Shown here: positions 17,944-63,801 of the stretch, in pieces
How the letters are laid out: every line of letters starts with the position of its first letter
How positions within the stretch are numbered: the stretch's first letter is position 1
From: Candidatus Melainabacteria bacterium 17Bon1m
GTDB lineage: Bacteria; Cyanobacteriota; Vampirovibrionia; Obscuribacterales; Obscuribacteraceae
Assembly: GCA_032128875.1 (NCBI GenBank)
Contig: JAVLKG010000001.1
Span: forward strand, 384,001 to 448,000
DNA: 64,000 nucleotides
Reading direction: 5' to 3'
Translations under genes and position numbers: made by a program
Notes under the pieces: model-generated
What the model saw: the letters and a program-made list of their open reading frames with translations, nothing else
The model's database searches: none
What the model was told of the DNA's origin: nothing

Positions 17944-18261
17944 CTACAGTTCGTTGAGAGTTTTCTGCAGATCGATCAAGTGATTGTTGAATATCTCTTT
18001 TGCTACGTCCAACAAACGAAAGACAGTTGGATCGCTGCATGAATAGTAAATGTTGTTGCCTTGCTTTCGCGATACGACCAAATTCTTCGAGCGAAGCACG
18101 GCCAGCTGCTGCGAGATATTCGGCAGTTCTACATCCAAACGGTCGCGAATCTCAGAGACTGTTAATTCCTCTGTTCTGAGTTCATCAAGGATTCTTATGC
18201 GCAGCGGATTTGCAAGCGCTTTGAAAAACTCTGCTTTGAAGTTGACGAGTTTGTCTGGCAT
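17944..18261 (-). CDS. ArsR/SmtB-family regulator (Rv0081-like)
   Basis: Probable start MPDKL at 18261. FKAEFFKALANPLRIRIL...NISQQLAVLR resembles M. tuberculosis Rv0081 as recalled (LKAEFFKTLAHPARIRIL...NLSQQLGVLR). Confidence 0.88.
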   Translation of the reverse strand: MPDKLVNFKAEFFKALANPLRIRILDELRTEELTVSEIRDRLDVELPNISQQLAVLRSKNLVVSRKQGNNIYYSCSDPTVFRLLDVAKEIFNNHLIDLQKTLNEL

Positions 18262-18556
18262 GGGTCGTTTTCTGGATCTGGAGCTTGTCGTTATCAATAG
18301 TATTCTAGTCCCATGCTTGAAGTAAACGGGCAAATCATCCTGGCGTCCTTTGGCTGCCAAGGTCTGCGCTTTTGCGCTCTGGCTCTAAATTGTCGGGTCA
18401 CCTGTAAGAATCACATAAGGAGCGGTGGGGTTAGGGTTTGTACCGCTCCAAATGTGTTCTTTGGAACTCCCATCAAGCTATTATCAAGATTTACATCTTT
18501 TGAAACCAAGTTGAAAGCAAAGCTTATATGCGTCACCGTCCCGGGTTCCTTTTGCT

Positions 18557-19198
18557 CTAGGGAAGATTTTTAATTAGCTCCGTTGGTACCTTTGAGTCTT
18601 GTGGTAAATTCTTCGCTTCTTCGGCATACCACTTAGGAATGTACAGTCTGCTGTCGTGTAAGCAGACGAATAAAGGAGCAACGGTCAACTTGCGAAAGAC
18701 ATTAGTGAGGCGGATGTACTCTGCCTGCAAAGCATCTAGCTCATCATTGATAGCATGACGGCTAGCTTGTTTTGAAACATATTCTTCGGCAATTTCTGGA
18801 TCCCATCCCTGGTCGATAAAAGCTTGCACTACGGATGGTGCTTTCTCGTAAACCTTGGACATCCCACAATCGTTATGTCCGATCATTATCAAATATTTGA
18901 CGCCTTGTGACAGCGTATATCCGACGCTGAATTCTGAGCCGATTACTCTGCCACTGGCGCGCCGAATAACATATGCGTACATTCGTGGAACAGGAAGCGC
19001 ATAGCGAAACTCGATGCATGTAGCGATCAACAGTTCTACTTTTCCTGTAGATACAATTGGCCATCCAAAATTTTGCGCCATGATGAATGATTCAATTGGA
19101 GTATCTCTCCATGCCTCGGGAATCTCCTCGCGCGACTTAACTTCAATCAAAGACTCTTTGTATTTGTCGTCTGATCGTACTGGAGGAGGAATATTCAT
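18557..19198 (-). CDS. Beta-carbonic anhydrase-like protein
   Basis: Probable start MNIPPP at 19198. Zn-ligand pattern TCIEFR ... IGHNDCG; the canonical CxDxR has Asp replaced by Glu. Confidence 0.75.
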   Translation of the reverse strand: MNIPPPVRSDDKYKESLIEVKSREEIPEAWRDTPIESFIMAQNFGWPIVSTGKVELLIATCIEFRYALPVPRMYAYVIRRASGRVIGSEFSVGYTLSQGVKYLIMIGHNDCGMSKVYEKAPSVVQAFIDQGWDPEIAEEYVSKQASRHAINDELDALQAEYIRLTNVFRKLTVAPLFVCLHDSRLYIPKWYAEEAKNLPQDSKVPTELIKNLP

Positions 19199-19232
19199 TT
19201 GCGTTTCCAAAGTGGTGTGGTGTGGGTGAGCG

Positions 19233-19853
19233 TTAGTGGCATTCGTCGTCCGGAAATACCCAGAAGCTCTCGGTCTGCGGATCGTATGTTGCGTTTTCCA
19301 TGGTGTCATCATGGTTGATCCATGCATGAAATTTGAGATTGCCTTCCTGCGCTGCTTTCGATATTTTAGGCAGTTTCAGAAGTTCTGAAAGTTCTCTGAG
19401 AACAAAATCTTCAACTGCACGTTGAAAGACGTGTTTGTCGAATTTGTCTCCAAATCTTTCTTTTATGGCATTCCTTGTGCCAGACACTCTGCGAATCACT
19501 TCGTTATATATGTTTGTCGAAGGCCCGTCCGCCGATGGGTCGCTGCGCAAACCAACTTCAATGATTTCGCAGCCGTAGTGCCCATATACGATGACGTCGC
19601 TTATCTGTTTGCTGGCGACAAGGTCTTCGAGCCCTCCGCAGTCGTCAACGCAACCACCGAGGTTTTGCCAGGTGAAGATTGGTAATTTTGGATCTGCTGG
19701 AAATACTGAATTGATGTTGCACATCTCGGAGCAGCAGATTACCGCCACGCCGGTGGAAGTGCCGCCGGTAAGCCTTTTATTGATTTGCGACCGAGAAGTC
19801 GGTTCGATTAGGCGGATCGAAGTTTCGTCAAGAATGCCGGCTAACGTTTTCAT
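19233..19853 (-). CDS. Divergent beta-carbonic anhydrase-like protein
   Basis: Probable start MKTLAG at 19853. ICCSEM, QNLGG, IVYGHYGC, and C-terminal GNLKFHAWI typical of beta-CA. The Asp-Arg dyad is not conserved. Confidence 0.65.
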   Translation of the reverse strand: MKTLAGILDETSIRLIEPTSRSQINKRLTGGTSTGVAVICCSEMCNINSVFPADPKLPIFTWQNLGGCVDDCGGLEDLVASKQISDVIVYGHYGCEIIEVGLRSDPSADGPSTNIYNEVIRRVSGTRNAIKERFGDKFDKHVFQRAVEDFVLRELSELLKLPKISKAAQEGNLKFHAWINHDDTMENATYDPQTESFWVFPDDECH

Positions 19854-19913
19854 ATCGACTGAACACCTATGGCGCACGGATACGGTTGTTTGGAATTGTA
19901 ACACTATTAGAGC

Positions 19914-19931
19914 AATTGCGCAATTACGCAA
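19914..19931. promoter_or_regulatory. Palindrome between the divergent CA/ArsR and Ehr operons (candidate ArsR operator)
   Basis: AATTGCGCAATT (19914-19925) overlapping TTGCG-N6-CGCAA (19916-19931). Confidence 0.5.
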
Positions 19932-19981
19932 GTAGTTTAATACATAATGTTACTAGGCAGGACTTTCGCGGCAGTCTTTGA

Positions 19982-21952
19982 ATGAATTCGCAGGTTGTGT
20001 TTCTGGAGTCATTGTTTCTACTGGTGTCAGCAGCAGTTGCTGCATTTGCTCTTAGTCACAAGAGCCAAGTTTCCGACAAAGCCATGTCATATCTCCTTTG
20101 TGCAATCGCTTCATTCGCGATTGCCGTTTCGTTTTTAGGCGGCGGTCAGATAGTCAGCTATGAAACGAGCGCGCCATTAATGCTCGGCGTGTTTCCCCTG
20201 ACGTTTTTGCTGGACGGGCTGAGCCGATTTTTTGTGGCAATCCTGAGCGCCATCCTCTTTGCCATCGGGCTATTCTCGCCGGGCTATCTTTCGCACTTAA
20301 AAGGAAAGATCTCAGGCGGGCAATATTGGATCGCATTCTTTCTGCTCGCACTTTCGATGTTCGGAGTTGTGTTGAGTGCTGATGCCATCACTTTCATCGT
20401 GATGTGGGAAATTATGTCGCTTTCCTCCGCTGCGCTTGTTGCTAGTGATCACACGCATCAATCAGTGCAGAAAGCTGCTCTAATTTATTTAGGCGCCACT
20501 CGAACAGCTAGTGGCTTGCTGTGCGGCGGCTTTCTATGGATGCACTCTTTGACTGGAAGTTGGAATTTCGCTTCCTGGAATTTCGCGCAGCCTCATGCAA
20601 TTTTTCCTGCCCTGCTTATATTGCTCGGATTTTGTATCAAAGCCGGCGTCTGGCCGTTTCACATCTGGTTGCCTTATACGTACCCTGCTGCACCAGCCAC
20701 CGTGTCTGCCGCGATGAGCGGTTTTTTGGTCAAGCTTCCTATATATGGATTGATTCGAATTCTGATTCAAGGTGGCTTGTCTTCGCCTGAGATTATCAAT
20801 CTTATGTTTGTCTTGGGCGCGATTTCTTCTTTCTGGGGAGTGTTGTTCGCTCTTGTTCAAAACGATTTGAAACGCCTTCTAGCCTATTCGAGTATTGAAA
20901 ACATCGGTCTTATTCTTCTTTCTTTGGCTATTTCTCTAAAAGCCCGCGCTGCCAACTTGCCCTTAATCGCTGACGTGGCGATGGTGGCAGCAATCTTTCA
21001 TTGCCTCAATCATGGCGCAATCAAGTCACTATTATTCCTGTCTGCTGGTGCTGTGGATGCGATGGCGCATTCACGCGATCTCCATCGGTTGGGCGGTTTG
21101 GCGAAGCGGATGCCTTGGACCATGGCGTGTTTTTTCATCGGCGCCTTTTCAATCTGTTCTATTCCGCCTATGAATGGCTTCGCAAGCAAATGGTTGCTCT
21201 ATCAAAGCTTGTTCAAAAGCACCCTACTTTTTGGCTCTTACCTTGATCGCGGTTTGTTTCTCACGGCGATTTGCCTTTTGTCAGCAGTCGGCGCGCTGGC
21301 TATTGCAGTTTTTGTCAAGGCGATGGGTGTCGTCTTCCTTGGCATGAGCAGAAGCCATGCCGCAGAACATGCTGTAGAAGCTAGTCCCGGCATGCTTTGC
21401 GCTCAGGTTCTGCTGGCTGCATGTTGTGCAGGTCTGGGCGTCTTTGCGCCTAACCTGGTCAGTCAAATTACAAAGATCGCATCCTCTTCGACGCGACCAA
21501 TTACCACTGCTCCGATTGATTTCGCGCTGCCAATTCCATTGCTTGCTGGGACATTGTTTGCAACGGGATTGGTTATCTACGTTGTTTTTTTGCAGAGTTC
21601 TAAAGTCCGAACTTTCAAAACGTGGGATTGTGGTTTTGGACCACTAACTCCAAAAACCCAGGCATCGTCTGATTCTTTCGCACAACCGTTGGCTCGCATT
21701 TTTCGCCCGTTTTTGAAATACGAAACGAACGCCACGATATCCGGGCGCGATCGTCGCCATTTCCCAGAACAAATAAATGTCGAAGTAAAAATCGTTTCGA
21801 TACTAGAATCACGCGTTTATTTGCCTTGTCTAGCGGTGATCAGTTATCTCGCAAGAGGACTGGCAAAATTGCAAGCAGGAAGCATTCATCTTTATCTTGT
21901 GTATGTCTGCTCGACACTCATAATCCTTTTGGCACTAGGGACTATTCTATGA
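19982..21952 (+). CDS. hyfB: HyfB/NuoL-like antiporter subunit of an Ehr complex
   Basis: WEIMS, KAGVWPFHIWLP, KRLLAYSSIENIG, WDCG. Confidence 0.88.
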   Translation: MNSQVVFLESLFLLVSAAVAAFALSHKSQVSDKAMSYLLCAIASFAIAVSFLGGGQIVSYETSAPLMLGVFPLTFLLDGLSRFFVAILSAILFAIGLFSPGYLSHLKGKISGGQYWIAFFLLALSMFGVVLSADAITFIVMWEIMSLSSAALVASDHTHQSVQKAALIYLGATRTASGLLCGGFLWMHSLTGSWNFASWNFAQPHAIFPALLILLGFCIKAGVWPFHIWLPYTYPAAPATVSAAMSGFLVKLPIYGLIRILIQGGLSSPEIINLMFVLGAISSFWGVLFALVQNDLKRLLAYSSIENIGLILLSLAISLKARAANLPLIADVAMVAAIFHCLNHGAIKSLLFLSAGAVDAMAHSRDLHRLGGLAKRMPWTMACFFIGAFSICSIPPMNGFASKWLLYQSLFKSTLLFGSYLDRGLFLTAICLLSAVGALAIAVFVKAMGVVFLGMSRSHAAEHAVEASPGMLCAQVLLAACCAGLGVFAPNLVSQITKIASSSTRPITTAPIDFALPIPLLAGTLFATGLVIYVVFLQSSKVRTFKTWDCGFGPLTPKTQASSDSFAQPLARIFRPFLKYETNATISGRDRRHFPEQINVEVKIVSILESRVYLPCLAVISYLARGLAKLQAGSIHLYLVYVCSTLIILLALGTIL

Positions 21953-22950
21953 ATGACATAAGCACTCATGTTCTTAGAAGCTGCTCTCATTGGATTCTCT
22001 TTGTCTCAAGCATAGTAATACTCCCACCTGTGTGCTTAACACTCATCAGAAAAACCAAGGCTCGCCTGCAAAGTCGAGTTGGTCCGCCGCTTCTTCAGCC
22101 TTTTTACGATTTGATCAAACTTTACCGCAAAAGTGAAACCGTCAGTTCTACGATGTCTGGAGTGTTCAGACTTGCTTCTGTCGCCGGGCTTGCCACCATC
22201 ATTTTGCTTGCCTGGCTGACTCCGTGGCTGTCGTACAAGCCTTGGAGCCCCAGCGCCGATTTATTCCTCATTATTTATCTCTTTGCTCTGGCGCGTGTGT
22301 TCTCTCTTTTAGGCGCGCTGGATTCAGGCTCTGCGTTTGGCGCTTTCGGCGCAAGCAGAGAAGTAACTCTCGGGCTCCTTGTCGAGCCGGCGTTGATGCT
22401 TGGTCTTGTTGCTCTGGGTTTGTTTTGCGGAAGCAGTGACCTGCGAATGATTTTTTCGTACCCTCATGCGATTGGCGTTGGAGCCGCAGCGGTTACTGGT
22501 GCCGCATCTGGTGCCGGAGCCGCCGGCATTTGGCTGCTGGTTGGAATTGCGATTTTGCTGGCGAGCTTAATAGAGCTCTCTCGGATGCCTGTGGACGATC
22601 CAACTACGCACCTCGAGTTGACGATGGTTCATGAGGCCATGGTGCTCGAAGCATCTGGGCGCAATCTGGCGTTAATTGAGTTTGCCCATGCCCTTAGAAT
22701 GAGCATCTTCTTCGGTTTGTCGGCTCAGTGCTTCGTCCATGCACTGGCTTCTGTTTGTCACATCAATACATTGACTCAAGGAATTCTGAGCGTTGTTGGC
22801 ATATGTGGCATCGCAATTTTTGTTGGGGTGCTGGAAAGTCTCGCGGTCAAATTGCAGTGGCGGAAAGTTCCTGAATTCGTCGCTTATGTCGTCTCGATGA
22901 GCCTCCTTGCAGCTTTTGTCGCAGCCGGAAGTGGAGGCATCAAATTATGA
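21949..22950 (+). CDS. hyfC: HyfC/HycD (NuoH-like) membrane subunit
   Basis: Start MNDIS overlaps the hyfB stop. RVGPPLLQPFYDLIKL, GASRE, RMPVDDPTTHLELTMVHEAM. Confidence 0.88.
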   Translation: MNDISTHVLRSCSHWILFVSSIVILPPVCLTLIRKTKARLQSRVGPPLLQPFYDLIKLYRKSETVSSTMSGVFRLASVAGLATIILLAWLTPWLSYKPWSPSADLFLIIYLFALARVFSLLGALDSGSAFGAFGASREVTLGLLVEPALMLGLVALGLFCGSSDLRMIFSYPHAIGVGAAAVTGAASGAGAAGIWLLVGIAILLASLIELSRMPVDDPTTHLELTMVHEAMVLEASGRNLALIEFAHALRMSIFFGLSAQCFVHALASVCHINTLTQGILSVVGICGIAIFVGVLESLAVKLQWRKVPEFVAYVVSMSLLAAFVAAGSGGIKL

Positions 22951-23594
22951 TTTCTGCGATCAACCTTTGTGTTCTTTGCGCAGCGGTGCTTGCCTGCCTG
23001 ATGGTCGGGTCTTTGCACTTGAGGCTCAATCTATTTCTGTACGGGGTAGAAACGCTCTTTATCGCAGCTGCAACAGTTCTCACTGCCAATGCCCATGGGG
23101 ACGCGAGCCTGATCTGCATTGCGATGATGATTGGAACTTTGAAAGCTTTAGGAGTTCCTTTTTTCCTGCTCAAAACCAGCGAGAAGCTGAATGTTCATCG
23201 CGATGTCGGTGCGATGATTACGCCACCGTTGGCAATGCATTTGTCTATTGTTCTTTTCGCTTTGAGTTTTGTTTTGACTCAAAATATTCCCACACCGCAG
23301 TTGGTGGTCAACGGCTGGTATGGAGCTGCTGCAGGTATTTCGCTTCTTTTCACCGGTCTTGTCATTATGCTGACCAGGAGATTGGCTATCGGGCAGATTC
23401 TCGGTTTTCTCGTAATTGAAAACGGTATCTATGTGTTTGCGCTCACCCAGACGCTCGGTATGCCAATGCTCGTCGAAATGGGAATTTTGCTGGACATGCT
23501 CGTTGGCGTTATGGTGTGTGGGGTTTTGGTGTTCAAAATTCAAAAGAGTTTTGAACACATCGATGTCGCACTTCTTACTGATTTGAAGGAGTGA
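22947..23594 (+). CDS. hyfE: HyfE membrane subunit
   Basis: QILGFLVIENGI, VEMGILLD, C-terminal LTDLKE. Confidence 0.85.
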   Translation: MISAINLCVLCAAVLACLMVGSLHLRLNLFLYGVETLFIAAATVLTANAHGDASLICIAMMIGTLKALGVPFFLLKTSEKLNVHRDVGAMITPPLAMHLSIVLFALSFVLTQNIPTPQLVVNGWYGAAAGISLLFTGLVIMLTRRLAIGQILGFLVIENGIYVFALTQTLGMPMLVEMGILLDMLVGVMVCGVLVFKIQKSFEHIDVALLTDLKE

Positions 23595-23595
23595 G

Positions 23596-25032
23596 ATGGA
23601 GCTTTTCTTCACCCTTTGTGCTTTACCTGTATTTGGTGCCATCTGGGCAGCGAAGTGCCGGCACCTTGAAAAAGTGCGTAGCTCCGTCACCTTGCTCATC
23701 TGGCTTCAGGTTATTGCTACCGCAATTTTGATTGGACCGCTTCTGCGCGGTGATGCTTCGCTGCTTAGATTCACAGCCGACTTTGCTCTGGATAGAAGTG
23801 CTGCTTGCTTTTTGTTGTTGACCAATTTTGTCGCAGCTTGCTCGCTTACTCATGCTCCTACTTTCTTTCGCAATGAGAGTGTGATTGCAGGCAAAATTAT
23901 TCCGCCGTTGCACGAACGCTTTTTCTATGTGTCTTCTCTGCTTTTCGTTCTTGCTATGAATTTTGTCTTTATGGCGGACAATCTCGGACTCCTCTGGGTG
24001 AGCATTGAGGCTACAACCATTTTCTCTGCTGGGCTTGTCTATTTTTCGCGAGACAAACATGCATTGGAGGCGACTTGGAAATACTTGATGGTATGCAGCG
24101 TCGGCATCGCATTTGCATTGTTGGGAACGATTTTGATCTTCGCATCGAGCCAGCATGGTGCCATTGATGGCGGGTCGTTAAACGTAAGAATGTTGATTGG
24201 CTGTGCGGGGCGCCTCGAGCCAAAACTATTAGAGCTCGGCTATATCTTTTGCTTGCTGGGCTACGGCACCAAAGCCGGCATTTTCCCTCTCCACACGTGG
24301 CTGCCCGACGCGCATTCTGAAGCGCCTGCTCCTGCATCTGCCATGCTGTCCGGGGCACTTCTCAACTGTGCGCTCTTCGCGATTTGGCGTGTTACAGAAC
24401 TAGTAAAACTTACAGAGCATCACGCTATTTGCGAATCAATTCCTATTTTCTGGGGCGCGCTCACGGCATTGGCCGCGGGGTTATTTCTTGTGCACCAGTA
24501 TGGTATCAAGAGGCTTTGGGCGTATTCGAGCATTGAAAATGTCGGAATAATGCTGGTTGCGATTGGGCTTGGATCGCCCATGCTATTTTTTCTCCAAGCG
24601 CTTAATCACAGTATTGCAAAGGTCGCCTTATTTCTTCTGTCGGGAAATATAATTCAATATTTTGGCACCAAAGATCTCAGCAAGATACGCGGACTATTAA
24701 AAGTCAGTCCGACATGCGGCATTCTCTTGGCGGTCTGCGCTGCAGCTGTTACGGGCATGCCTCCCTTTGGTGCTTTCATTGCAGAGTGGTTGATTCTTGC
24801 AAAATCTGCTGATGCGATGCAAGGAATCTCTGTCGCTATTCTGCTCATCGCTCTTGCGATTAGCTTTGTCGCTGTCAGTATTCACGTCTCTCGAATTCTC
24901 TGGGGCTCTGCAAAGCCGGAATTGACTCAATCGAGATCAATCTCTCGATACCTCATTCCTTCGATTCTTGGAATTTGTACCATTGTGCTCGGTTTGACGG
25001 CAGTTCCTTTGATTTTGGTAAAACCTCTATGA
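23596..25032 (+). CDS. hyfF: HyfF antiporter-like subunit
   Basis: WVSIEATT, ALEATWKY, GYGTKAGIFPLHTWLPDAHSEAP. Confidence 0.88.
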   Translation: MELFFTLCALPVFGAIWAAKCRHLEKVRSSVTLLIWLQVIATAILIGPLLRGDASLLRFTADFALDRSAACFLLLTNFVAACSLTHAPTFFRNESVIAGKIIPPLHERFFYVSSLLFVLAMNFVFMADNLGLLWVSIEATTIFSAGLVYFSRDKHALEATWKYLMVCSVGIAFALLGTILIFASSQHGAIDGGSLNVRMLIGCAGRLEPKLLELGYIFCLLGYGTKAGIFPLHTWLPDAHSEAPAPASAMLSGALLNCALFAIWRVTELVKLTEHHAICESIPIFWGALTALAAGLFLVHQYGIKRLWAYSSIENVGIMLVAIGLGSPMLFFLQALNHSIAKVALFLLSGNIIQYFGTKDLSKIRGLLKVSPTCGILLAVCAAAVTGMPPFGAFIAEWLILAKSADAMQGISVAILLIALAISFVAVSIHVSRILWGSAKPELTQSRSISRYLIPSILGICTIVLGLTAVPLILVKPL

Positions 25033-26507
25033 AACTCGAGCGCGACAATGTCAAACTTGACGAGCGGATCGATACGCTCCGCCCGCTCTTGCACCAGAGT
25101 GGCAATCGCCTTGGATTGATATCGTCAATCGACGGTAAACAACTGATTTCACTTTTGCTCAATACCTCAGAGAACAGAGCCGTTTGCTGGGAAAGTCCTT
25201 TGCAAACGAATCGCTATCATTCATTAGCTCCCGTAATTTCGCAGGCTCATTGGTTCGAGCGAACTTTGTGGGATATGTTTGGACTCGAGCCGGAAAATCA
25301 TCCGCGCTTGAAGCACAACCTGCTGCACGAAGCTTATTCAACCGATCTCATTCCCTTGTTGGCTGAAGAATCGGTGTCGTCAAATGGCAAGCCGCGAGAA
25401 TACTTGCCGATGGCGGTGAAGGGCGATGGAATTTACGAGATTCCGGTCGGACCAATCCATGCTGGGATTATCGAGCCCGGGCACTTTCGCTTTAGTTGTT
25501 TGGGCGAAGTGATTTTCAATCTGGAAATCAGGCTTGGATATGTGCACCGCGGCGTCGAGAAGAGAATGTGCGAGCTGCCGTGGCGCAAGATGCGATTTCT
25601 GGCAGAAGCTGCCGCGAGCGACAGCGCCGCCGCTTATGCTCTTGCGCATTCGATAGCGGTGGAAAGTTGTTTTGATGTTGCAGTCTCTTACAAAGCTGAT
25701 TTTCTGCGAACGATATCACTCGAGATTGAAAGAATTGCCATGCATATCAATGATCTTGGCGGGCTGGCAGGAGACATTGGATTTCTCGCCATATCTTCAA
25801 CGATGGGCAGACTCAGAGGCACTGCTCTTTCCATGGCAGAGCAGTTGACCGGAAGCCGACTCCAAAGAGGCTTTATCTGCCCTGGAGGTGTGGTCTTTGA
25901 TCCGAGCGATAAATTGAAGAGTATCAAAGCTACGGCGAATTGGTTGAGAAAGGAGCTAAAACCAGTCATCTCATTTTTTATGTCTAATGAAGTTGTTCGC
26001 GATCGTATGGAAAATGTCGGAAAGGTATCGCCTCGTCTTGCCGCTGATTTCGGACTCGTTGGCCCTGCAGGCAGAGCCAGCGATCAGAAGTATGATGCGC
26101 GCCATCATTTTGTGCACGGAGTATATCCGAGGGTTCGTGTGCCGATTGCGATGGAAATTGGTGGTGATGTTCTCAGTCGTGCAAAGGTGCGTATTGCCGA
26201 ACTCGAATCGAGCCTCTTTCTCGTAGAACAACTGATTGATGGTCTTCCTGAAGGCGACGTTTGCACTAAATTGCCTGATGCACTGCCGAACAACGCATCT
26301 GGAATCGGAATAGTCGAATCTCACAGAGGTGAGCTGATTCATTTGATCTTCACCGATTCACAAGGGCAGTGCTGCCGCTATGCCATTAAAGATGCAAGTG
26401 TCAATAATTGGACTGGCTTGGCAATCGCAGTGCGAAACAATCTTGTCTCTGACTTTCCGCTGTGCAACAAAAGCTTCGGCTTGTCGTACAGCGGTCATGA
26501 CCTGTGA
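25029..26507 (+). CDS. HyfG/HycE-like large subunit lacking [NiFe]-binding motifs (Ehr type)
   Basis: Start MKLERD at 25029. VGPIHAGIIEPGHFRF, LGYVHRGVEK. The L1 region reads EAAASD with no CxxC, and the C-terminus DFPLCNKSFGLSYSGHDL has no DPCxxC. Confidence 0.88.
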   Translation: MKLERDNVKLDERIDTLRPLLHQSGNRLGLISSIDGKQLISLLLNTSENRAVCWESPLQTNRYHSLAPVISQAHWFERTLWDMFGLEPENHPRLKHNLLHEAYSTDLIPLLAEESVSSNGKPREYLPMAVKGDGIYEIPVGPIHAGIIEPGHFRFSCLGEVIFNLEIRLGYVHRGVEKRMCELPWRKMRFLAEAAASDSAAAYALAHSIAVESCFDVAVSYKADFLRTISLEIERIAMHINDLGGLAGDIGFLAISSTMGRLRGTALSMAEQLTGSRLQRGFICPGGVVFDPSDKLKSIKATANWLRKELKPVISFFMSNEVVRDRMENVGKVSPRLAADFGLVGPAGRASDQKYDARHHFVHGVYPRVRVPIAMEIGGDVLSRAKVRIAELESSLFLVEQLIDGLPEGDVCTKLPDALPNNASGIGIVESHRGELIHLIFTDSQGQCCRYAIKDASVNNWTGLAIAVRNNLVSDFPLCNKSFGLSYSGHDL

Positions 26508-26516
26508 GGTGTCTGC

Positions 26517-27818: not shown

Positions 27819-27823
27819 AGCTG

Positions 27824-28285: not shown

Positions 28286-28298
28286 GGCTCTTTATCCT

Positions 28299-30292: not shown

Positions 30293-30312
30293 TACTTCCC
30301 TCGCTTGCTCGA

Positions 30313-53148: not shown

Positions 53149-53352
53149 GCTTAAAAGCCAGCCGTTCTATAGGCTCCCATTTTGGCACATCCTCCCAAAG
53201 TATGACTTTCTTTCAAAGTGGCGTTTTTCTGCTCATAATCGGAATGGTCCAGACGAACGATATGTTCCAGCCTGAAATTGGACAAAATGGTACTTGGATG
53301 CTGCCATGGGCGTCGCTTCTAATTCGGCGTCCGATTTCCTGGAGGAGAGACA

Positions 53353-54791: not shown

Positions 54792-54936
54792 GGTAGGTCC
54801 GGAGCATCCCTTGGAATAACCGCCAAGAACCGTCCCCAAGAATTCTCTAACGATCATTCCTCAGAAGCATGCGACGTTCGACACTTGCAGGCAGAATGTA
54901 AAAACAAATCGGCATTCCAGGAAAGAAGTGATTGAT

Positions 54937-56937: not shown

Positions 56938-57069
56938 GTGTCGTGGTGATTGCGCTATAAGTAGCCTCGCAGTTCGGCACTTTTTTCTTATTAGTCCTGC
57001 CGAACGATACTTTAGAAGACATATTCGTCTGTAATGGTTGTGTTCGCCCCTTACGGCTCGACCCTGAAG

Positions 57070-58107
57070 ATGTCCCGAACTTTTCTATTACCAAAATCAC
57101 GATTCTGCGAGTTTTTCAGCTATTTGAAAGGGCTCGGCAAATTTTTTGCGCCTGTTCGCGTTTCCGAGCAGTCGTTTTCATTCAAGGAAATTGAAAACGA
57201 AGGCGAAATTGCTTGGGATGCACTAAGAACAATACTCCCGCCGAAGAAGTTCTTTTACCCGCAAAGGGAAACAGTGCTTAAGTACGATGGAAACGAAGTC
57301 AAAGCGACTGTTCCGGAAGACAATTTTCAAATCATTTTTGGCGTCCATCCGTGCGATCTGGCGGGTCTTGGAATTATGGACACCATTTTTGAGGCAGCTC
57401 CCAGCGATACTCATTACACAAAGCGGCGAGAACAAAGTCTTGTTATAGGTTTGTCTTGTATGCCGGACAAGTTTTGCTTTTGTCAGTCGATGGGAACTTC
57501 TTGCCCAACCAAAGGGTACGATCTTTTCTTGACTGATTTACGCGATGCTTTTTTCGGACAAGTTGACACCGCTCGCGCTGAGCAGGTACTGGCCGGCTGC
57601 GATCATTTGTTTTCGCCTGTTTCGGAAAATGATAAAGACAGCTACAAAGAATTTTGGATAGAGCGCGATAAGGCATTTACAAACGGTTTTGAGCCCGACA
57701 ATTTGCGCTCCACCCTAGATATGGAATGGGACAATCCACTATGGGATGAGCTGGGCAAAAGGTGCTTGAGTTGCGGCAATTGCACTCCTGTTTGTCCCAC
57801 TTGCTATTGTTTCGACCTTGTCGATATCGCCAATTTGAATGGACAGTCGGGAGAAAGACAGCGGGAATGGGATAGCTGTCAATTCGTTGGTTTTGCACAA
57901 GTTGCTGGTGACTACAATTTCCGACCGACACCGGTGGATCGTCTCAAATTTTGGTATCGCCACAAGTTGCATGGTTTTGACGATCCTTACGGATTCAAGA
58001 CGTGTGTTGGCTGCGGAAGATGCACGGTTTCATGTCCTTCCGGGATAGATGACATTGTCGACGTTGTGAAAAGGCTTCAAGGAAATAATGAACAATCCAA
58101 TAAGTAA
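57070..58107 (+). CDS. Group 3b [NiFe]-hydrogenase beta (Fe-S) subunit
   Basis: PPKKFFYP, GVHPCD, CLSCGNCTPVCPTCYC, WDSC, CVGCGRCTVSCP. Confidence 0.9.
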   Translation: MSRTFLLPKSRFCEFFSYLKGLGKFFAPVRVSEQSFSFKEIENEGEIAWDALRTILPPKKFFYPQRETVLKYDGNEVKATVPEDNFQIIFGVHPCDLAGLGIMDTIFEAAPSDTHYTKRREQSLVIGLSCMPDKFCFCQSMGTSCPTKGYDLFLTDLRDAFFGQVDTARAEQVLAGCDHLFSPVSENDKDSYKEFWIERDKAFTNGFEPDNLRSTLDMEWDNPLWDELGKRCLSCGNCTPVCPTCYCFDLVDIANLNGQSGERQREWDSCQFVGFAQVAGDYNFRPTPVDRLKFWYRHKLHGFDDPYGFKTCVGCGRCTVSCPSGIDDIVDVVKRLQGNNEQSNK

Positions 58108-58942
58108 TTCGCGGTGTCCTCTTACACCATCTCGTGGCGTTATTCGCTCGATAATTCCGATGGCCAGTGATAACACCTTGTTTCAAATTACTGTCGAAGA
58201 AGATGGTCTTAACAATTGTATGCCAGGACAGTTCGTCCAGCTCTGGGTTCCTGGTGTCGGAGAGTCTCCTATTTCGGTCTGCTCCGGTCATGTCGGCGCA
58301 ACGATTGAACTGACTGTGCGCAAAGTAGGTCGAGTGACCAGTGCACTCTTTCAAATGAATGAGGGCGATTGGGTGGGCCTTCGCGGACCCTATGGAAATG
58401 GCTTTCCAGTCGAGCAGTACAAAGGAAAAGATCTTTGCTTGATTGCAGGGGGACTGGGGGTTGCGCCGATTAGATCCCTCTGGCAATACGTCCTTGATCA
58501 CAGAGAAAACTTTGGAAAAATCACTTTGATTTATGGCATGCGACATTCAATAGATCTGCTTTTCAGAAGCGAGTTCAAAATGCTATTGAGACGCAGAGAT
58601 ATGGATGTTTTCATCGCCGCTGAAGAATTGTGTGGTCCCGCTTTACCACCAATTTCTGTGCAATTGGGGCGTGTTACGGACATGATCAAGGCGGCTTCTC
58701 TCTCTCCTTGCGTTGAGGTTGCGGTGTGTGGACCACCTGTCATGTACAAGTACGTTATTAATGAACTGAAAGCAAAAGATATAGCGGAATCTCAGATTTG
58801 GCTGTCTTTAGAGCGGCATATGAAGTGTGGTATTGGCAAATGTGGACATTGTTTTATCGGTGGAGCGTTTGCTTGCAAAGCGGGGCCCGTTTTCAATTTG
58901 CCGCAGTTGCGTTTACTTCCTGAAGCAGTTGAGTGTGCTTGA
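58088..58942 (+). CDS. Group 3b hydrogenase gamma (FAD/NAD(P)-binding, 2Fe-2S) subunit
   Basis: PGQF, GESPIS, RGPYGNGF, AGGLGVAP, CGPPVM, ERHMKCGIGKCGHC. Confidence 0.92.
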   Translation: MNNPISNSRCPLTPSRGVIRSIIPMASDNTLFQITVEEDGLNNCMPGQFVQLWVPGVGESPISVCSGHVGATIELTVRKVGRVTSALFQMNEGDWVGLRGPYGNGFPVEQYKGKDLCLIAGGLGVAPIRSLWQYVLDHRENFGKITLIYGMRHSIDLLFRSEFKMLLRRRDMDVFIAAEELCGPALPPISVQLGRVTDMIKAASLSPCVEVAVCGPPVMYKYVINELKAKDIAESQIWLSLERHMKCGIGKCGHCFIGGAFACKAGPVFNLPQLRLLPEAVECA

Positions 58943-58944
58943 AG

Positions 58945-59703
58945 ATGGAAACGAATCCGCGTCCTTGCATTGCAGTAGAAGGGCTGACTGGGTGTGCCGG
59001 TGAGCTTCTTGTGATATTGGAAAATCTTGATAAATTGCTTCCCTTTGTCAGGGTGGCGAGCTTTCCTTTTGCGCAGAGCCAAAATGATGATGGTCCCGTT
59101 GATATCGCTTTTGTGGAAGGAAGCGTCAGCCAGCCGCATGACTTGGAAAAACTAAAAAGAATCCGTGCTAAAGCAAGGTGGCTTGTTGCTGTCGGGAATT
59201 GCGCGGTCTGGGGTTGCGTACAAGGAGGCGCCTGCGCAAAATGCAAAGTCACCGAGATGCTCGAAGCGGTCTATGGACAGCACAGCGAGATTCAAGCTCT
59301 TGAGTCCAAACCCCTTGATGCATACGTCAATGTCGATGTGAAACTTTCCGGTTGTCCTATAGACAAAACACAGTTTTTGTCAGTCACTGCCAGTTTGCTG
59401 AAAGATCACCTGCCTTACATCACTCACAAACCTGTTTGCCTGGAATGCAAGCTGAAGGAGAATCCTTGTGTGTTGATTGAGAAAAACCTACCCTGCCTGG
59501 GACCCGTTACCGCAGCAGGATGCGGTGCCCTTTGTCCAAGCCTGGGCGCTGCCTGTTATGGCTGCTGGGGACCCAGCCAAGACCCGCAAATGGATGCTAT
59601 GGCAACGATACTAAGCGAGAAAGGTTATGAAGCACTGGAGATAATGAATAGACTTAAGACATTTGGAGCCCCGGCTCATCTTTTTGAACGTATGAATGTT
59701 TAG
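58945..59703 (+). CDS. Group 3b hydrogenase delta (small) subunit
   Basis: LTGCAGE, FVEGSV, GNCA, GCP, PVCLECK, CLGPVTAAGCGALCP, CYGCWG. Confidence 0.9.
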   Translation: METNPRPCIAVEGLTGCAGELLVILENLDKLLPFVRVASFPFAQSQNDDGPVDIAFVEGSVSQPHDLEKLKRIRAKARWLVAVGNCAVWGCVQGGACAKCKVTEMLEAVYGQHSEIQALESKPLDAYVNVDVKLSGCPIDKTQFLSVTASLLKDHLPYITHKPVCLECKLKENPCVLIEKNLPCLGPVTAAGCGALCPSLGAACYGCWGPSQDPQMDAMATILSEKGYEALEIMNRLKTFGAPAHLFERMNV

Positions 59704-59762
59704 GTGAATCCATTGGGATTCTTTTCATATAGACTTAATTGATTTGGGCGAAGGAAAGGCAC

Positions 59763-61064
59763 ATGAGCGACGTCGAAAAGAAGATCATTCAAATACCGGA
59801 AATTACCCGAGTAGAAGGTCATGCTGCTGTCGAAATAGACATTGAAGACGGTAATGTGAAAGACGTACGGCTTGACGTCTTTGAAGGTACGCGTTTTTTC
59901 GAGCGCATTGTTCTCGGCCATAAATACGACGAACTTGCGCATATAACATCGCGTGTTTGTGCCATATGTTCCACAGGGCACGTGCTTGCCGCCATATTTG
60001 CAGTAGAGCGGATCTTTTCTTTTACTCCAACTCCCATTGAAACGAAATTGCGCGAACTAATGCACTTGGGCATGATTATTGAATCGCATGCCACTCATGT
60101 TTGCGCTCTGGCCTTGCCCGACTTTTTAAAAACTCCTGATCTTGCATCTTTTGCCGGACAGCATAAAGAGAAATTTCTTCTCTGGACTCATCTGCGCAAT
60201 CTTGGCGCGGAAATTCAAACTGCTGTAGGAGGAAGACCTTTCCATCCAGTCAATTTGCATGTCTCAGGTTTGTCAAAAATTCCCTCAACCGCTTCATTAG
60301 AAGGTGTCAAAGCAGACCTTAAACGCTCGTTGGACGAAGCGATTTTACTGGCGGAACTGGTTTTATCTTTTGCGCCACCGGTAGAAAGACTGACGGAGCC
60401 ATATTTTTTAGCGCTCATTCCACACGACGACAAATACGGATACTTTGGCGAGACTATACAGTCGAGTGAAGGATGGCAGAGATCTTGCCAGGAATACAAA
60501 GAGTATCTGGACGAGCAGGTCGTTGAATATAGCCATGCGAAACGCTCACTGGTGAAAGGAAAGCCTGTGATGGTCGGTGCAATGGCCCGGTTGGCACTGT
60601 TTGGTAAAAGGCTTACAAGAGAAGCTCTGAATGTCTATCAGGAGACACCACTCTTCAAAGGCGACAGTAATTCCATATGGAACAATGCCGCCCAAGCAAT
60701 TGAAATAATCCAGGCAATCGAAAGAGCAATTGAAATCGTCGATGAAGTCGAGGCTCTTAAGAAAGAACAGTCTGCCGAGAAGAAGCCGCTCGAAATTGTT
60801 GCGGGAAGTGCCACTGGCGCCGTCGAATGTCCTCGCGGCACGCTTTATCACTATTACGAAATCGACGAAAACGGCGTCATTCGTGCGGCAGACATGATCA
60901 CGCCATCGGCGCAAAATACTGCCCGAATCGAACTGGACATCAAAGAAGTGGTCAGTCAAAGCAAAGAAAAAGAAATGCTCGGACCACATCTCGAAACGCT
61001 CGTAAGAGCCTATGATCCGTGCAACACCTGTGCCACCCACATGGTGGCAATCAACTGGAAGTAA
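59763..61064 (+). CDS. Group 3b [NiFe]-hydrogenase alpha (large) subunit
   Basis: TRVEGH, L1 SRVCAICSTGH, ECPRGTL, L2 RAYDPCNTCATH plus a short cleavable tail. Confidence 0.95.
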   Translation: MSDVEKKIIQIPEITRVEGHAAVEIDIEDGNVKDVRLDVFEGTRFFERIVLGHKYDELAHITSRVCAICSTGHVLAAIFAVERIFSFTPTPIETKLRELMHLGMIIESHATHVCALALPDFLKTPDLASFAGQHKEKFLLWTHLRNLGAEIQTAVGGRPFHPVNLHVSGLSKIPSTASLEGVKADLKRSLDEAILLAELVLSFAPPVERLTEPYFLALIPHDDKYGYFGETIQSSEGWQRSCQEYKEYLDEQVVEYSHAKRSLVKGKPVMVGAMARLALFGKRLTREALNVYQETPLFKGDSNSIWNNAAQAIEIIQAIERAIEIVDEVEALKKEQSAEKKPLEIVAGSATGAVECPRGTLYHYYEIDENGVIRAADMITPSAQNTARIELDIKEVVSQSKEKEMLGPHLETLVRAYDPCNTCATHMVAINWK

Positions 61065-61080
61065 TTAGAGGGGGTAAGAA

Positions 61081-62400
61081 ATGCTGCAGGAAACTCAGGA
61101 AAGAGGTTCTTGGATTAATGACTATCGAAGGAAAGTAGTCTCAGTCGATGAGGCTATGAAAGCAGTCAACTCTCTCGATCGCGTCTATGTTCATTCCAAT
61201 GCTGCAGCGCCTCAAGTTCTGCTTGAGGGGCTTGTCAGACGTGCTGACCAACTAACCGGTGTCAAAATCTATCAGCTTCTCACGCTTGGCAAGGCTGACT
61301 ATGCGCTGGCTAAATACAGCAATTCATTTTCCGTTAACTCATTTTTCATCGGAGCCAATGTCAGAGAAGCTGTCAACGCAGGACGAGCGGATTATATACC
61401 TGTTTTCTTGAGTGAAATACCGGGCTTATTCATGTCAGGTGAGATTCCACTCGATGTTTGCCTCCTGCAAGTATCCCCGCCCGATGCCCACGGGTTTTGC
61501 AGCTATGGAGTATCTGTTGATTGCACCATTGCGGCGCGAAAGAAATCGCGCCTAGTAATTGCTGAAATAAATAAACAGATGCCGCGCACTCTTGGCCGCT
61601 CGTTCGTTCATGTTTCGCGCCTCGATCACATTGTCGAGACAGACCATCCTCTTCCTGAACTCGCCTCGGAGACCGGCACAGCTGTCGAGCGCGCCATCGG
61701 TGCGAATGTTGCCACACTGATCGAAGACGGCGCCACTCTGCAGCTCGGCATTGGAGCAATTCCCAACGCTGTTCTTGCCAATCTGCATGAGAAGCGAAAT
61801 CTCGGCGTGCACAGTGAAATGTTATCTGATGGAGTCATTGATTTGATTGAAAGAGGCGTTGTCACCAACGATGCAAAAACTGTATTGCCAGGAAAAGTGG
61901 CAGTCTCCTTTGTGATGGGAAGCAAGCGCCTTTATGACTTTGTCGACAATAACCCGCTGGTTGAATTTCAGACCAGCGATTATATTAACGACCCGTTTGT
62001 GATATCACAAAACTACAAAATGACGGCCGTCAATTCCGCATTGCAAGTCGATGTAACAGGTCAAATTGCTGCCGACACCATAGGCAATGTTTTGTACAGC
62101 GGCTTTGGCGGACAAGTAGATTTCATTCGCGGGGCTGCCCGTGCCAAAGACGGAAAGGCAATTATCGCACTGCCTTCGACCGCCAAGGGTGGCAAGATAT
62201 CTCGCATCAGCGCCATGCTAAATCCAGCTTCAGGAGTGGTGACATCACGCGCCGACGTTCACTATGTAGTCACCGAATATGGTATTGCGCAATTGAGTGG
62301 AAAAACTTTGAAAGAAAGAGCGAAGGCGCTCATCTCAATAGCTCATCCTGATTTCAGGACCGAGATTGCTAGTCAGTGCGCAGCATATTCCTGGTATTGA
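61081..62400 (+). CDS. Acetyl-CoA hydrolase/CoA-transferase family protein
   Basis: VSPPDAHGFCSYG, LQLGIGAIP, LGVHSEM, SGFGGQVDFIRGA, VVTEYG. Confidence 0.93.
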   Translation: MLQETQERGSWINDYRRKVVSVDEAMKAVNSLDRVYVHSNAAAPQVLLEGLVRRADQLTGVKIYQLLTLGKADYALAKYSNSFSVNSFFIGANVREAVNAGRADYIPVFLSEIPGLFMSGEIPLDVCLLQVSPPDAHGFCSYGVSVDCTIAARKKSRLVIAEINKQMPRTLGRSFVHVSRLDHIVETDHPLPELASETGTAVERAIGANVATLIEDGATLQLGIGAIPNAVLANLHEKRNLGVHSEMLSDGVIDLIERGVVTNDAKTVLPGKVAVSFVMGSKRLYDFVDNNPLVEFQTSDYINDPFVISQNYKMTAVNSALQVDVTGQIAADTIGNVLYSGFGGQVDFIRGAARAKDGKAIIALPSTAKGGKISRISAMLNPASGVVTSRADVHYVVTEYGIAQLSGKTLKERAKALISIAHPDFRTEIASQCAAYSWY

Positions 62401-62409
62401 TTTTATTCA

Positions 62410-63801
62410 TCAAAGCTCGATTACGTCACCAATAGATGGCACGTCTGCTTTGACTTGAAAGCTTTCTTCTACCTTGAAGCGCAATTCATTGAGCTGATGC
62501 GGCTCTCCATGCGTGAGAAACAACTTGGTCTTGTGCCGTGCCAGAGGCTCCAGCCAGCGAAGCAGATCGTTTTGTCCGGCATGTGCGCTGAATCCTTGCA
62601 CAGACTTTATTTTCGCCCGTACAAAAACAGTCTGCCCCATTATCTTGACTGGATTTGCACCATCTATTAGTCGGCGCCCAAAAGATTCCCTAGCTTGATA
62701 GCCGACAATCAGAACAAGAGTATTCGGCAGACCGAGATTGTGCCTCAGATGGTGTAGTATGCGCCCTGCATCGCACATGCCGGCGCCGGCCATGATAAGG
62801 CAGGGACCCTCCACGTCGTTGAGAGCCTGTGATTCCAAGGCTGTGGTGCACAATTTCAAATTTGGCAGGTAATGATAGATATTGTCGCCCGAAAAAAAAT
62901 CTCTTGCGTCTTCGTCCAATAGATCGGTATGTCGAGAGTAAATCTGTGTGGCAGCAAGCGCCATGGGACTGTCGAGATAGACAGGTATTCGCTTCAATTC
63001 CCCTTTTCTGAAAAGGTCGAACAAATGAAACAACAGTTGTTGTGTTCGTCCAACAGCAAATGTCGGAACTAAAATTTTTCCTTTATTTTCAATTGCTTCA
63101 TTTATGCAATTCCTCAGCTCGGCTACTGTTTCTTCGTAGGGGGGATGGTTTCTTCCACCGTAGGTTGACTCCATAAAGACAGCATCTGCTCGGTCTATCT
63201 CCGCTGGATCGCGATTAAGAGGAATATCCCACTGCCCTAGATCTCCCGAAAATATAAGTCTTCGTTTGCCGCCGTTTTGACCAGCCACCATAATGACGCT
63301 TGAGGAGCCAAGAATATGCCCTGCTTCTACAAGTTCTACATTAGTCTCAGGCGCGACAGGAAACCATTTATTGTATTTTTGGGGAGAAAACAGTTTGAAC
63401 ACGCGCTCAACATCACTCAGATTGAACAATGGTTTTACTGCTTGTTGCCCTGCTTTTGCCCTTTTCCTGTTTTCTCTATCCGTATCGTCAACTTGTATTT
63501 TCGCCGCATCTGTAAGTATCAATCGCGCGATGTCCAGAGTCGCGTCTGTTCCGTAAATTTTCCTTTGAAATCCGTTTTTTACAAGAAGAGGTAAACGCCC
63601 GCAATGATCCAGGTGTCCGTGCGTTAACACCACGGCATCAAGCTCTTTGGGCTTGATAGATGCAGGAATGAAGTTTAAGCGCTCCAGGTGCTTTGAGCCT
63701 TGAAACATACCGCAGTCAACGAGCAATCGCGCATTGCCTGTCTCAATGAGATAGCAAGATCCCGTTACTTCGTTTGCGGCTCCATGCAGAGTTACAAACA
63801 T
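62410..63801 (-). CDS. MBL-fold beta-CASP nuclease (RNA-specificity domain)
   Basis: GAANEVTGSC, THGHLDHCG, AGHILGS, FSGDLG, MESTYG, FSAHAGQ, THGE. Confidence 0.93.
   Translation of the reverse strand: MFVTLHGAANEVTGSCYLIETGNARLLVDCGMFQGSKHLERLNFIPASIKPKELDAVVLTHGHLDHCGRLPLLVKNGFQRKIYGTDATLDIARLILTDAAKIQVDDTDRENRKRAKAGQQAVKPLFNLSDVERVFKLFSPQKYNKWFPVAPETNVELVEAGHILGSSSVIMVAGQNGGKRRLIFSGDLGQWDIPLNRDPAEIDRADAVFMESTYGGRNHPPYEETVAELRNCINEAIENKGKILVPTFAVGRTQQLLFHLFDLFRKGELKRIPVYLDSPMALAATQIYSRHTDLLDEDARDFFSGDNIYHYLPNLKLCTTALESQALNDVEGPCLIMAGAGMCDAGRILHHLRHNLGLPNTLVLIVGYQARESFGRRLIDGANPVKIMGQTVFVRAKIKSVQGFSAHAGQNDLLRWLEPLARHKTKLFLTHGEPHQLNELRFKVEESFQVKADVPSIGDVIEL

Follow-up and report, generated by a model that had tools for sequence, protein, structure and literature searches.

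The island and its sensor-regulator pair

The 64-kb window analysed here (positions 384001-448000 of contig C1 in a Candidatus Melainabacteria genome of 7.55 Mb, 35 contigs and 93% completeness) holds the larger part of a gene island in which universal stress protein (USP), small heat-shock, ribosome hibernation, cation pump, [NiFe] hydrogenase and nitric oxide (NO) detoxification genes are clustered together with a globin-coupled sensor histidine kinase and a NarL-type response regulator. The original prediction, made from the window sequence, had described positions 17944 to 63801 as a DosR-regulon-like dormancy island. Gene families were assigned by Pfam, NCBIfam and direct reading of the open reading frames (ORFs), and every family that had been named was found in its place. 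The cluster extends for ~66 kb, from position 17944 to about 83700 (contig C1 401.9-467.7 kb), and runs ~20 kb past the window end at base 64000, with looser outliers to about 502 kb. A stretch of 45 kb (C1:421065-465737) contains 14 of the 31 USP-domain matches in the 7.55-Mb genome. The closest relatives of the window proteins belong to Candidatus Melainabacteria, Obscuribacterales, Obscuribacteraceae (the order is placed under Candidatus Melainabacteria) and no photosystem reaction-centre family was found in the genome, which bears out the earlier guess of a Vampirovibrionia lineage. Recent horizontal acquisition of the island was considered and rejected, as its G+C content of 0.45-0.50 is that of the genome and the island is order-wide.

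The next 34 kb beyond the window were scanned with Pfam (loci L040, C1:448001-462000, and L042, C1:462001-482000; coordinates past 64000 are contig C1 positions minus 384000). Between the window end and a tandem USP gene (67538-68617, -) lie genes for an acyl ligase, a C92 peptidase and a cytochrome c. The candidate regulator, a NarL/FixJ-type response regulator with REC and GerE domains, is encoded at 68919-69680 (-), and divergent from it at 69772-71388 (+) is the kinase, with the domain order Protoglobin-PAS-HisKA-HATPase (Protoglobin E 2.5e-36, HisKA, HATPase_c). The original prediction was right that the window contains no dosRST-like genes, but an analogue sits 5 kb past its end, and the proposed search of the contig for a haem kinase and a NarL-type regulator led to this globin-PAS kinase and its divergent partner. 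The region 71385-83722 carries three USP genes (one tandem), a phosphoenolpyruvate (PEP) synthase, conserved unknown proteins of 138 and 193 aa, USP9, an MgtA-type P-type ATPase, USP10 and FtsH; the PEP synthase and the IIIB Mg ATPase scored above their NCBIfam cut-offs. In the looser tail, genes for a hemerythrin, a USP, an ArsR and SulP transporters are joined by one for a paralogue of the regulator (75% identical), behind which comes a third type II ATPase gene.

The globin domain of the kinase could be aligned to those of 2w31 (Geobacter globin-coupled sensor), 1or4 (HemAT) and 5ohe (AfGcHK), with weak similarity to the AfGcHK globin (E 0.005). The alignment keeps a His and a Tyr column, which we take to be the proximal haem ligand and the distal O2-contacting residue of a sensor globin. 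Judged by its domain make-up and these two columns, the protein is a globin-coupled sensor histidine kinase. For the regulator, the best solved structures were led by VraR (7e-46), NarL (1.5e-34) and ChrA, with DevR (3c3w, 7e-31) in sixth place. Its best NCBIfam model was that of NarL, below cut-off, and the FixJ model gave 53 bits against a cut-off of 255. The genome encodes at least four full-length paralogues of the regulator.

An orthologue of the kinase was detected across the order: among 61 genomes, 52 carried a full-length gene and a further 5 a gene cut by a contig end, while 4 had matches to the kinase core only. A search of 150 genomes from elsewhere in the phylum gave no match at E<=1e-90. 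Synteny was examined in 16 genomes from 12 genera, over 10 kb on each side of the kinase, by tblastn (more than half of the query covered, E<=1e-8). The regulator gene was adjacent to and divergent from the kinase gene in all 16 loci, and at least five genes of island families lay within 10 kb of the kinase in 14 of the 16, in an order that differs in nearly every genus. The families found around the kinase in relatives are USPs, P-type ATPases, the hydrogenase Hyh and its hyp genes, CoA-transferase, FtsH and PEP synthase, and also ArsR with the Ehr genes, the esterase/hydrolase/phosphoribosyltransferase genes, the hibernation factor HPF and beta-CASP. The closest relative, L001 (esterase 93% identical), keeps the gene order of the window over 21 kb, except that hypEDCF do not lie between the TPR gene and USP4. 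Clustering in relatives had been set as a check on the original prediction, and it is kept with a shuffled order. An association that survives such rearrangement classically signals functional coupling.

Gene modules of the island

The hydrogenase module starts with hypE, hypD, hypC and hypF (48416-53148, -), continues with a hycI-type protease gene, hypA and hypB (54928-56549, +) and ends in the structural genes of a [NiFe] hydrogenase, HyhB, G, S and L (57034-61064, +). HyhL has both Ni-Fe CxxC motifs (RVCAICSTGH and DPCNTCATH). The best NCBIfam models of the four Hyh subunits were those of sulfhydrogenase HydB/G/D/A, the group 3b prototype, all below the equivalog cut-offs. With its four subunits and both CxxC pairs, the 57034-61064 operon is by these features classed as a group 3b [NiFe] hydrogenase. 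It is followed by an acetyl-CoA hydrolase/transferase family gene (61081-62400, +) and a beta-CASP metallo-beta-lactamase RNase gene (62410-63801, -), and members of these two families accompany Hyh or the sensor pair in L003, L005, L065, L066, L072 and L076.

To the left of the hydrogenase module lie the stress and pump genes. They begin with a type II (IIA-like) P-type ATPase (34117-36951, +), whose best NCBIfam match was the IIA PMR1/SERCA type, below cut-off. Six single-domain USPs, USP1 to USP6, start at 37050, 38249, 39428, 53353, 53818 and 54234, all on the plus strand. HPF (S30AE family; 37478-37948, +) matches a solved hibernation factor at E 1.8e-19, and a GNAT acetyltransferase gene (+) lies between USP2 and USP3, within 38249-39901. 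The Hsp20 gene (39982-40482, -) is divergent from a gene for a Cys/Met pyridoxal-phosphate (PLP) enzyme of the Cys_Met_Meta_PP family (40747-42105, +), which is methionine-gamma-lyase-like.

An avidin-family gene (42204-42659, -) is divergent from an operon that opens with a rubredoxin gene (42855-43097, +), overlooked in the original prediction, and continues with genes of the erythromycin-esterase family (43115-44473, +) and the dienelactone-hydrolase family (44584-45276, +). A phosphoribosyltransferase-domain protein (PRTase; 45250-45951, -; Pribosyltran E 3.5e-13) follows. Upstream of the PRTase gene we noted a 76-aa ORF (45992-46222, -), also absent from the original prediction, that is kept in L001 and L006. 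The esterase, hydrolase and PRTase genes are adjacent to one another in Verrucomicrobiota, in Bacteroidota and in a Drouetiella cyanobacterium, where the trio is accompanied by a USP, a rubredoxin, a PEP synthase and two Hsp20 genes. In a metagenome-assembled genome of Arthrobacter the PRTase is fused to the hydrolase, a parallel to the fusions of domains that have been reported in Rv2030c and Rv0571c (PMC4410610, PMC5309233). A search of solved structures in the PDB gave best matches for the tandem USP, HPF and the esterase that were all non-mycobacterial.

Between the PRTase gene and hypE there are a rhodanese-YgaP gene (46432-46968, +), a TPR protein gene (+, within 46432-48409), a 72-aa ORF (47853-48071, +) whose translation looks DUF2934-like by eye, and a gene for a muconolactone-isomerase-like small protein (48092-48409, +). 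The latter adjoins hypE here and also in the distant family f2 (L078:11990).

The NO-detoxification block is encoded on the minus strand to the left of the P-type ATPase. It comprises an Rrf2-family regulator (27824-28285; Pfam E 1.9e-31), located downstream of a gene for a rubredoxin-RIC protein of di-iron Fe-S repair (28299-29297; NCBIfam 242 bits, cut-off 204.7), then a cytochrome c of the Cytochrom_C family (29474-30439), a quinol-type NO reductase (qNor; 30313-32583; NorB_cytochrome_c-like and COX1 domains), a single-domain globin (32831-33361) and, within the block 29474-33818, a gene for a conserved unknown protein of 138 aa (unk138), which is kept beside the P-type ATPase gene in L001 and L075.

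At the left end of the island is an ArsR/SmtB-family regulator (17944-18360, -; Pfam HTH_20/HTH_5) that scored above cut-off for a metalloregulator subfamily in NCBIfam and below cut-off as BigR-like. It is followed by a beta-carbonic anhydrase gene (19233-19931, -; Pro_CA E 6.5e-9), a second, weakly beta-carbonic-anhydrase-like gene (18557-19327, -; Pro_CA E 0.016, below cut-off) and an Ehr-like operon of six genes (19982-27287, +) that encode NuoL-, NuoH-, unknown, NuoN-, NuoCD- and ferredoxin-NuoB-like subunits. No CxxC motif was found in the 510-aa NuoCD-like protein, which corresponds to the large subunit; the operon is therefore assigned to Ehr and not to the true group 4 hydrogenases. 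Ehr complexes, according to PMC6349859, are built of group-4-like subunits with a large subunit that lacks the Ni-Fe cysteines. By this definition the products of 19982-27287 are classed as a hydrogenase-related, non-hydrogenase membrane complex. ArsR adjoins Ehr genes in locus L063 too, within 10 kb of the kinase there.

ArsR-family regulators and rhodanese-YgaP membrane proteins recur together. Both are present in the window (17944-18360 and 46432-46968), they form a divergent pair in L084 (G000:C1:593900-594950) and they are neighbours in L034. The below-cut-off BigR likeness of ArsR and this rhodanese company hint at sulfide or persulfide sensing rather than at an Rv0081-like role. In the left part of the window, the intergenic regions 3080-3413 and 4092-4304 contain GC-rich hairpins (GGCGGGCGGCATGAATGCCGCC...) and short tandem repeats (CGAGGAATTTCTACCGA x2; AGCATCAACC-type), and the AT skew is strong (-0.25) in the stretch occupied by two large ORFs, 4305-5999 and 6245-7756, neither of which matches a Pfam family.

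A shared palindromic operator

Most transcription units from RIC (29353) onwards are preceded by a 6-4-6 palindrome, TCATCC-N4-GGATGA, with the consensus AATCATCC-N4-GGATGATT; in this genus it often takes the form ATAGTCC-N4-GTATGA. By eye, four promoters shared GTCC-N6-AACGAT, and counting dyads brought out AATAGTCCTT in three promoters of the island. The first motif, GTCC-N5/6-ACGAT, was set aside as a genus-specific variant of the palindrome; it is unenriched genome-wide, with 85 matches against ~115 naively expected. TAGTCC alone was likewise not enriched in the loci of relatives (75 against 152 expected under uniform composition). When hexamers were compared between intergenic and coding sequence in the relatives' loci, GGATGA/TCATCC came out on top, with 42 intergenic and 125 coding occurrences for ~13 times more coding sequence; the same comparison in this genus placed GTATGA first.

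As a guard against circularity, a 20-nt matrix was built from 22 loci of other genera only, with the window, L001 and L075 left out. A scan of the genome at 13 bits or more gave 92 matches, 13 of which fell in C1:401944-475000 where 0.89 were expected (~15-fold). At 11 bits or more the island contained 19 matches against 1.8 expected. All 20 window matches of at least 9.5 bits lay between 29353 and 60432, and none in the left flank, where ABC exporter genes occupy 12492-17934. Sites were found ~15-330 nt upstream of RIC, the P-type ATPase, USP1-3, Hsp20/PLP, avidin/rubredoxin-esterase, hypF/USP4, hycI and hyhB, and also upstream of the orthologous genes in several other genera. In the 61 genomes, the pattern TCATYC-N4-GRATGA occurred 323 times, compared with 42 occurrences of the reversed control. 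A chance co-location of the genes with no co-regulation is hard to square with this enrichment for an independently built matrix, with the concentration of USP genes and with the synteny over 16 genomes, and we regard it as most improbable.

The divergent unk138/P-type ATPase region contains two operators (33915-33934 and 34008-34027; 15.2 and 13.3 bits), and AATAGTCCTTTAGTATGA from this region recurs identically upstream of USP9 outside the window. One operator lies ahead of USP1 (36980-36999, 13.5 bits) and the USP2 and USP3 units have one each (38048-38067 and 39354-39373; 10.2 and 14.8 bits). The operator between Hsp20 and the PLP enzyme gene (40682-40701) is located 53-63 nt before the latter in the window, L002 and L006. 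Two sites occupy the avidin/rubredoxin-esterase region (42708-42727 and 42779-42798; 12.9 and 18.9 bits) and two the divergent hypF/USP4 region (53188-53207 and 53243-53262; 11.5 and 14.2 bits; kept in L001). They are followed by an operator before hycI (54852-54871, 12.1 bits), a variant before hyhB (56990-57009, 10.5 bits) and, beyond the window, variants at 78025 and 78134.

A second conserved element is proximal to Hsp20 (window 40560-40600, and the Hsp20 upstream regions of L001, L002, L005 and L034). It reads AATCAT(A/T)CTTT(T/C/G)GAT... followed by ATATCAGCC and CAGGTTGC, and resembles an operator whose centre is shorter by 1 nt; this may be either a variant site or a separate, perhaps heat-shock, control element. 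The two small proteins encoded near the kinase at L040:12464-13458 (window-equivalent 76464-77458) belong to no Pfam family. The one of 138 aa has a CCECC motif and the one of 193 aa a sub-threshold likeness to resolvase-N. They adjoin the kinase in L063, L072, L075 and L076, where the strongest operator sites (23-24 bits) lie ahead of their genes.

The operator is not evenly distributed over the island. The ArsR/carbonic-anhydrase/Ehr block (17944-27818) contains none of the 20 window matches of at least 9.5 bits, and none lies before 29353. In the NO block the RIC promoter has a strong site (29353-29372, 16.2 bits), whereas qNor and the globin have none of their own. These two gaps, and the presence of an Rrf2 regulator inside the NO block, would suit an arrangement of two or three independent regulons side by side, one for NO stress (Rrf2/NsrR-like, RIC, qNor, globin), one for ArsR-Ehr and carbonic anhydrase and one for the USP and hydrogenase genes. 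We consider this improbable for the island as a whole: RIC-Rrf2 does have its 16.2-bit site and in L002 a 22.3-bit site lies 326 nt ahead of an Rrf2 orthologue, qNor, cytochrome c and Rrf2 travel with esterase, Hsp20 and ArsR in L002, and in L063 the kinase has ArsR-Ehr within 10 kb of it. For the ArsR/carbonic-anhydrase/Ehr block itself, membership in the same regulon is doubtful because no operator match was found there, and the block is probably under an ArsR-type control of its own. The original prediction was thus correct on the presence of an ArsR gene with an Ehr operon, and its inclusion of them in the same programme is in doubt.

Outside the island, the best site of the genome (23.6 bits, C4:237254) lies 86 nt ahead of the gene for a regulator paralogue that is 54% identical to the island protein and has nearly the same recognition helix. 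This paralogue (L079, G000:C4:236428-238629) is accompanied by two USPs and is divergent from a sigma-70-family gene, with the best site common to both; the site is kept in all five genomes of the genus. This locus may act as a second level of the circuit. Further top-scoring sites include one ahead of a hemerythrin gene, which adjoins an ArsR/rhodanese pair, and one ahead of a Rieske/cytochrome b operon that has another Hsp20 gene nearby. In many genomes strong sites cluster within ~1.5 kb of the kinase/regulator pair.

With a probability of roughly 60%, we read the island as a stress and persistence regulon that responds to gas and is common to the whole order (Obscuribacterales). The kinase would sense O2, and perhaps NO or CO as well, through haem and thereby control how far the regulator is phosphorylated; this protein or its paralogues would then bind the palindrome and switch on several modules together. 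These would be ribosome hibernation (HPF), the USPs, Hsp20 and FtsH, the cation pumps, the fermentative H2-evolving group 3b hydrogenase with its maturation genes, CoA-transferase and PEP synthase, the rubredoxin-esterase-hydrolase-PRTase genes and part of the NO-detoxification block. The switch may work in either direction, with a kinase active in the presence or in the absence of O2 and a regulator that acts as activator or repressor.

Several observations weigh against this regulon or against its gas signal. Hsp20, USPs and FtsH serve other stresses too. AfGcHK of Anaeromyxobacter (solved globin domain 5ohe) is reported to be activated by O2, the opposite of the DosT/FixL logic, and induction by hypoxia would therefore need a repressor or an inverted switch. 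Some matrix matches are coding artefacts, such as 58345 in hyhG and the codons for 'DVILMDV' in REC domains, and many sites in this genus are asymmetric variants of only 10-14 bits. The link between the regulator and the palindrome is association only. Three public runs labelled transcriptomic RNA-Seq (X2-X4), from the same sample as one DNA run, contain 100% of the sampled words, and in them positions 10000-29999 of the window assemble as contigs of 7-30 kb with even depth over island and non-island genes alike. These libraries probably carry much genomic DNA, and are uninformative on expression because the long even-depth contigs span island and flank.

Further adverse points are shared by an alternative in which the units are co-regulated through the palindrome by another factor (one of the four paralogues, the neighbouring sigma-factor circuit or an unrelated dimeric helix-turn-helix protein) in response to general stress such as energy limitation, stationary phase or desiccation, and not to a gas. 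The pattern is present in 2-5 copies in all four genomes in which no full kinase was found (G007, G015, G022, G054) and in none of nine genomes that bear the kinase (G010, G036, G039, G041, G043, G050, G001, G003, G005), so that kinase and motif show no clean correlation over the 61 genomes; family f2 and genus g6 gave a pattern count of 0. This mismatch may reflect motif divergence or incomplete genomes, or equally a different binding factor. The kinase-regulator intergenic region of this genome has no site, and hence no autoregulatory one, the best site of the genome belongs to the promoter of the paralogue and the sigma factor, and there are at least four full-length paralogues to choose from. 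The embedding of the kinase/regulator pair among island genes in nearly every genus examined and the strong sites within ~1.5 kb of the pair in many genomes speak for the pair itself. The 6-4-6 geometry suits dimers of the GerE type, for which the ComA and NreC boxes exemplify palindrome geometry, and the fermentative hydrogenase, qNor, hemerythrin and globin point to O2 or NO. On balance we judge control by another factor to be unlikely, and retain the gas-responsive regulon as the preferred reading.

Known low-oxygen systems and the meaning of the island

The likeness of the island to the mycobacterial DosR regulon is real in gene content, with about ten families in common at the family level only. 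As the latter is described in PMC2799521, bioRxiv 10.1101/2023.09.11.557286, PMC4410610 and PMC5309233, both have a haem sensor kinase with a GerE-output regulator; USPs, an alpha-crystallin protein, a type II P-type ATPase, an S30AE factor and PRTase, erythromycin-esterase and hydrolase domains; and ArsR with an Ehr/hyc-like operon, a fermentative group 3b hydrogenase and a PEP synthase. The PEP synthase just outside the window matches MSMEG_3934, and in M. smegmatis DosR controls both Hyh and a PEP synthase (bioRxiv 10.1101/2023.09.11.557286). The esterase, hydrolase and PRTase are separate genes in the island, which has as extras qNor/RIC/globin, avidin, carbonic anhydrase, rhodanese and FtsH. 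Nitroreductase, Tgs, NarK2/NarX, NrdZ and CBS families were not among the Pfam matches of the island ORFs.

The mechanism differs from that of DosR in sensor, phosphoacceptor, rank of the regulator and operator. DosS and DosT combine GAF-GAF with HisKA_3, whereas the island kinase combines globin and PAS with HisKA. The five HisKA_3 kinases of the genome lie elsewhere, and by Pfam none of them showed a GAF or a haem or gas-sensor domain, CHASE2 being the only sensor domain found. The DosR box is a palindrome with a GGGACT..AGTCCC core. With up to two mismatches this core matched once in the 64 kb, against 1.33 expected, at position 1513 outside the island. A true DosR/DosS/DosT system with its regulon, inherited or transferred from Actinobacteria, could account for the overlap in families, the NarL-type output and the presence of DevR among the solved relatives of the regulator. 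It is contradicted on three defining features. The esterase, moreover, is 38% identical to an actinobacterial copy and 35-44% to copies from Bacillota and Bacteroidota, and the only solved relative of the tandem USP at E<=1e-6 comes from Thermus. We therefore hold such a system to be exceedingly unlikely. The proposal of an equivalent, putatively dormancy-related programme stands for gene families and not for mechanism; the resemblance consists in recruited gene families and in the logic of a haem kinase with a GerE-type regulator, rather than in orthology.

The original prediction had also called the programme clustered rather than scattered. It is clustered here, but such clustering is not new. 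PMC2799521 describes a 31-gene hypoxia cluster in M. smegmatis (msmeg_3926-3955) with Hyd3/Hyh and a P-type ATPase next to DevRS. For B. cenocepacia, PMC3721108 describes the lxa locus of 50.7 kb and 50 genes with six USPs, whose overlap with DosR its authors noted. Like the island, lxa lies outside the actinobacteria and brings together, over ~50 contiguous kb, six USPs, an alpha-crystallin protein, a cation ATPase and a common promoter motif (PMC3721108), and with its contiguous USPs, small heat-shock protein, cation ATPase and single promoter motif the island is, from its gene content, of the lxa type in layout. The lxa motif, according to the same paper, is of the FNR/Anr type, TGA-N6-TCA, whereas the motif enriched in the island is TCATCC-N4-GGATGA, the FNR-type pattern not having been searched separately. 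For lxa, induction and a deletion phenotype are reported there as measured, whereas the island is known from sequence alone. The island differs from lxa further in the embedded globin kinase/NarL pair and in the hydrogenase and NO-reductase modules.

Among globin-coupled kinases, NmpU of M. xanthus belongs to a pathway that governs a small oxygen-utilisation regulon, which includes a USP, a P-type ATPase and a high-affinity oxidase (PMC11841059). The island kinase shares with AfGcHK and NmpU an N-terminal sensor globin with His and Tyr columns and a C-terminal kinase, and differs from both in an extra PAS domain. The NmpU pathway is a phosphorelay to an NtrC-like regulator, whereas the island kinase adjoins a GerE-type DNA binder and a larger clustered candidate regulon. 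FixL-FixJ also joins a haem kinase of the HisKA class to a REC-GerE regulator, and FixJ acts mainly through FixK/NifA cascades. FixL carries its haem in a PAS domain, in contrast to the globin of the island kinase.

The searches made brought up no literature on a hypoxia regulon in this lineage, and one for Obscuribacter and hypoxia gave community surveys only. The lineage, the globin-kinase/NarL wiring, the operator and the order-wide conservation appear to be new. We put forward tentatively, at slightly less than even odds, the broader proposal of a regulon common to the whole order, with at least a dozen operons and more than 60 genes, under a globin-coupled O2 kinase that acts through a NarL-type regulator, itself the DNA binder, and an undescribed 6-4-6 palindrome, assembled independently of DosRST, FNR and FixLJ-FixK. 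If true, it would give a globin-coupled kinase its first sizeable operator-defined regulon, would place in this order the same 'hypoxic persistence toolkit' as in mycobacteria, with the enigmatic esterase/hydrolase/PRTase module included, and would open a view of oxygen sensing in the sister lineage of the oxygenic cyanobacteria.

The Obscuribacterales are uncultured, and a genome-derived regulon with a named sensor, a named regulator and ~20 mapped operator sites per genome would be directly testable. It may give a handle on how these facultative aerobes survive when sludge, aquifers and drinking-water systems turn anoxic. The island would represent a fourth wiring of a recurring bacterial low-oxygen island, after DosRST, FNR/Anr and FixLJ, which would make its content of USPs, small heat-shock protein, HPF, cation pumps, group 3b hydrogenase and esterase/hydrolase/PRTase a convergent toolkit. 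The rubredoxin-esterase-hydrolase-PRTase module, uncharacterised even in mycobacteria, would thereby gain a second well-defined regulatory context.

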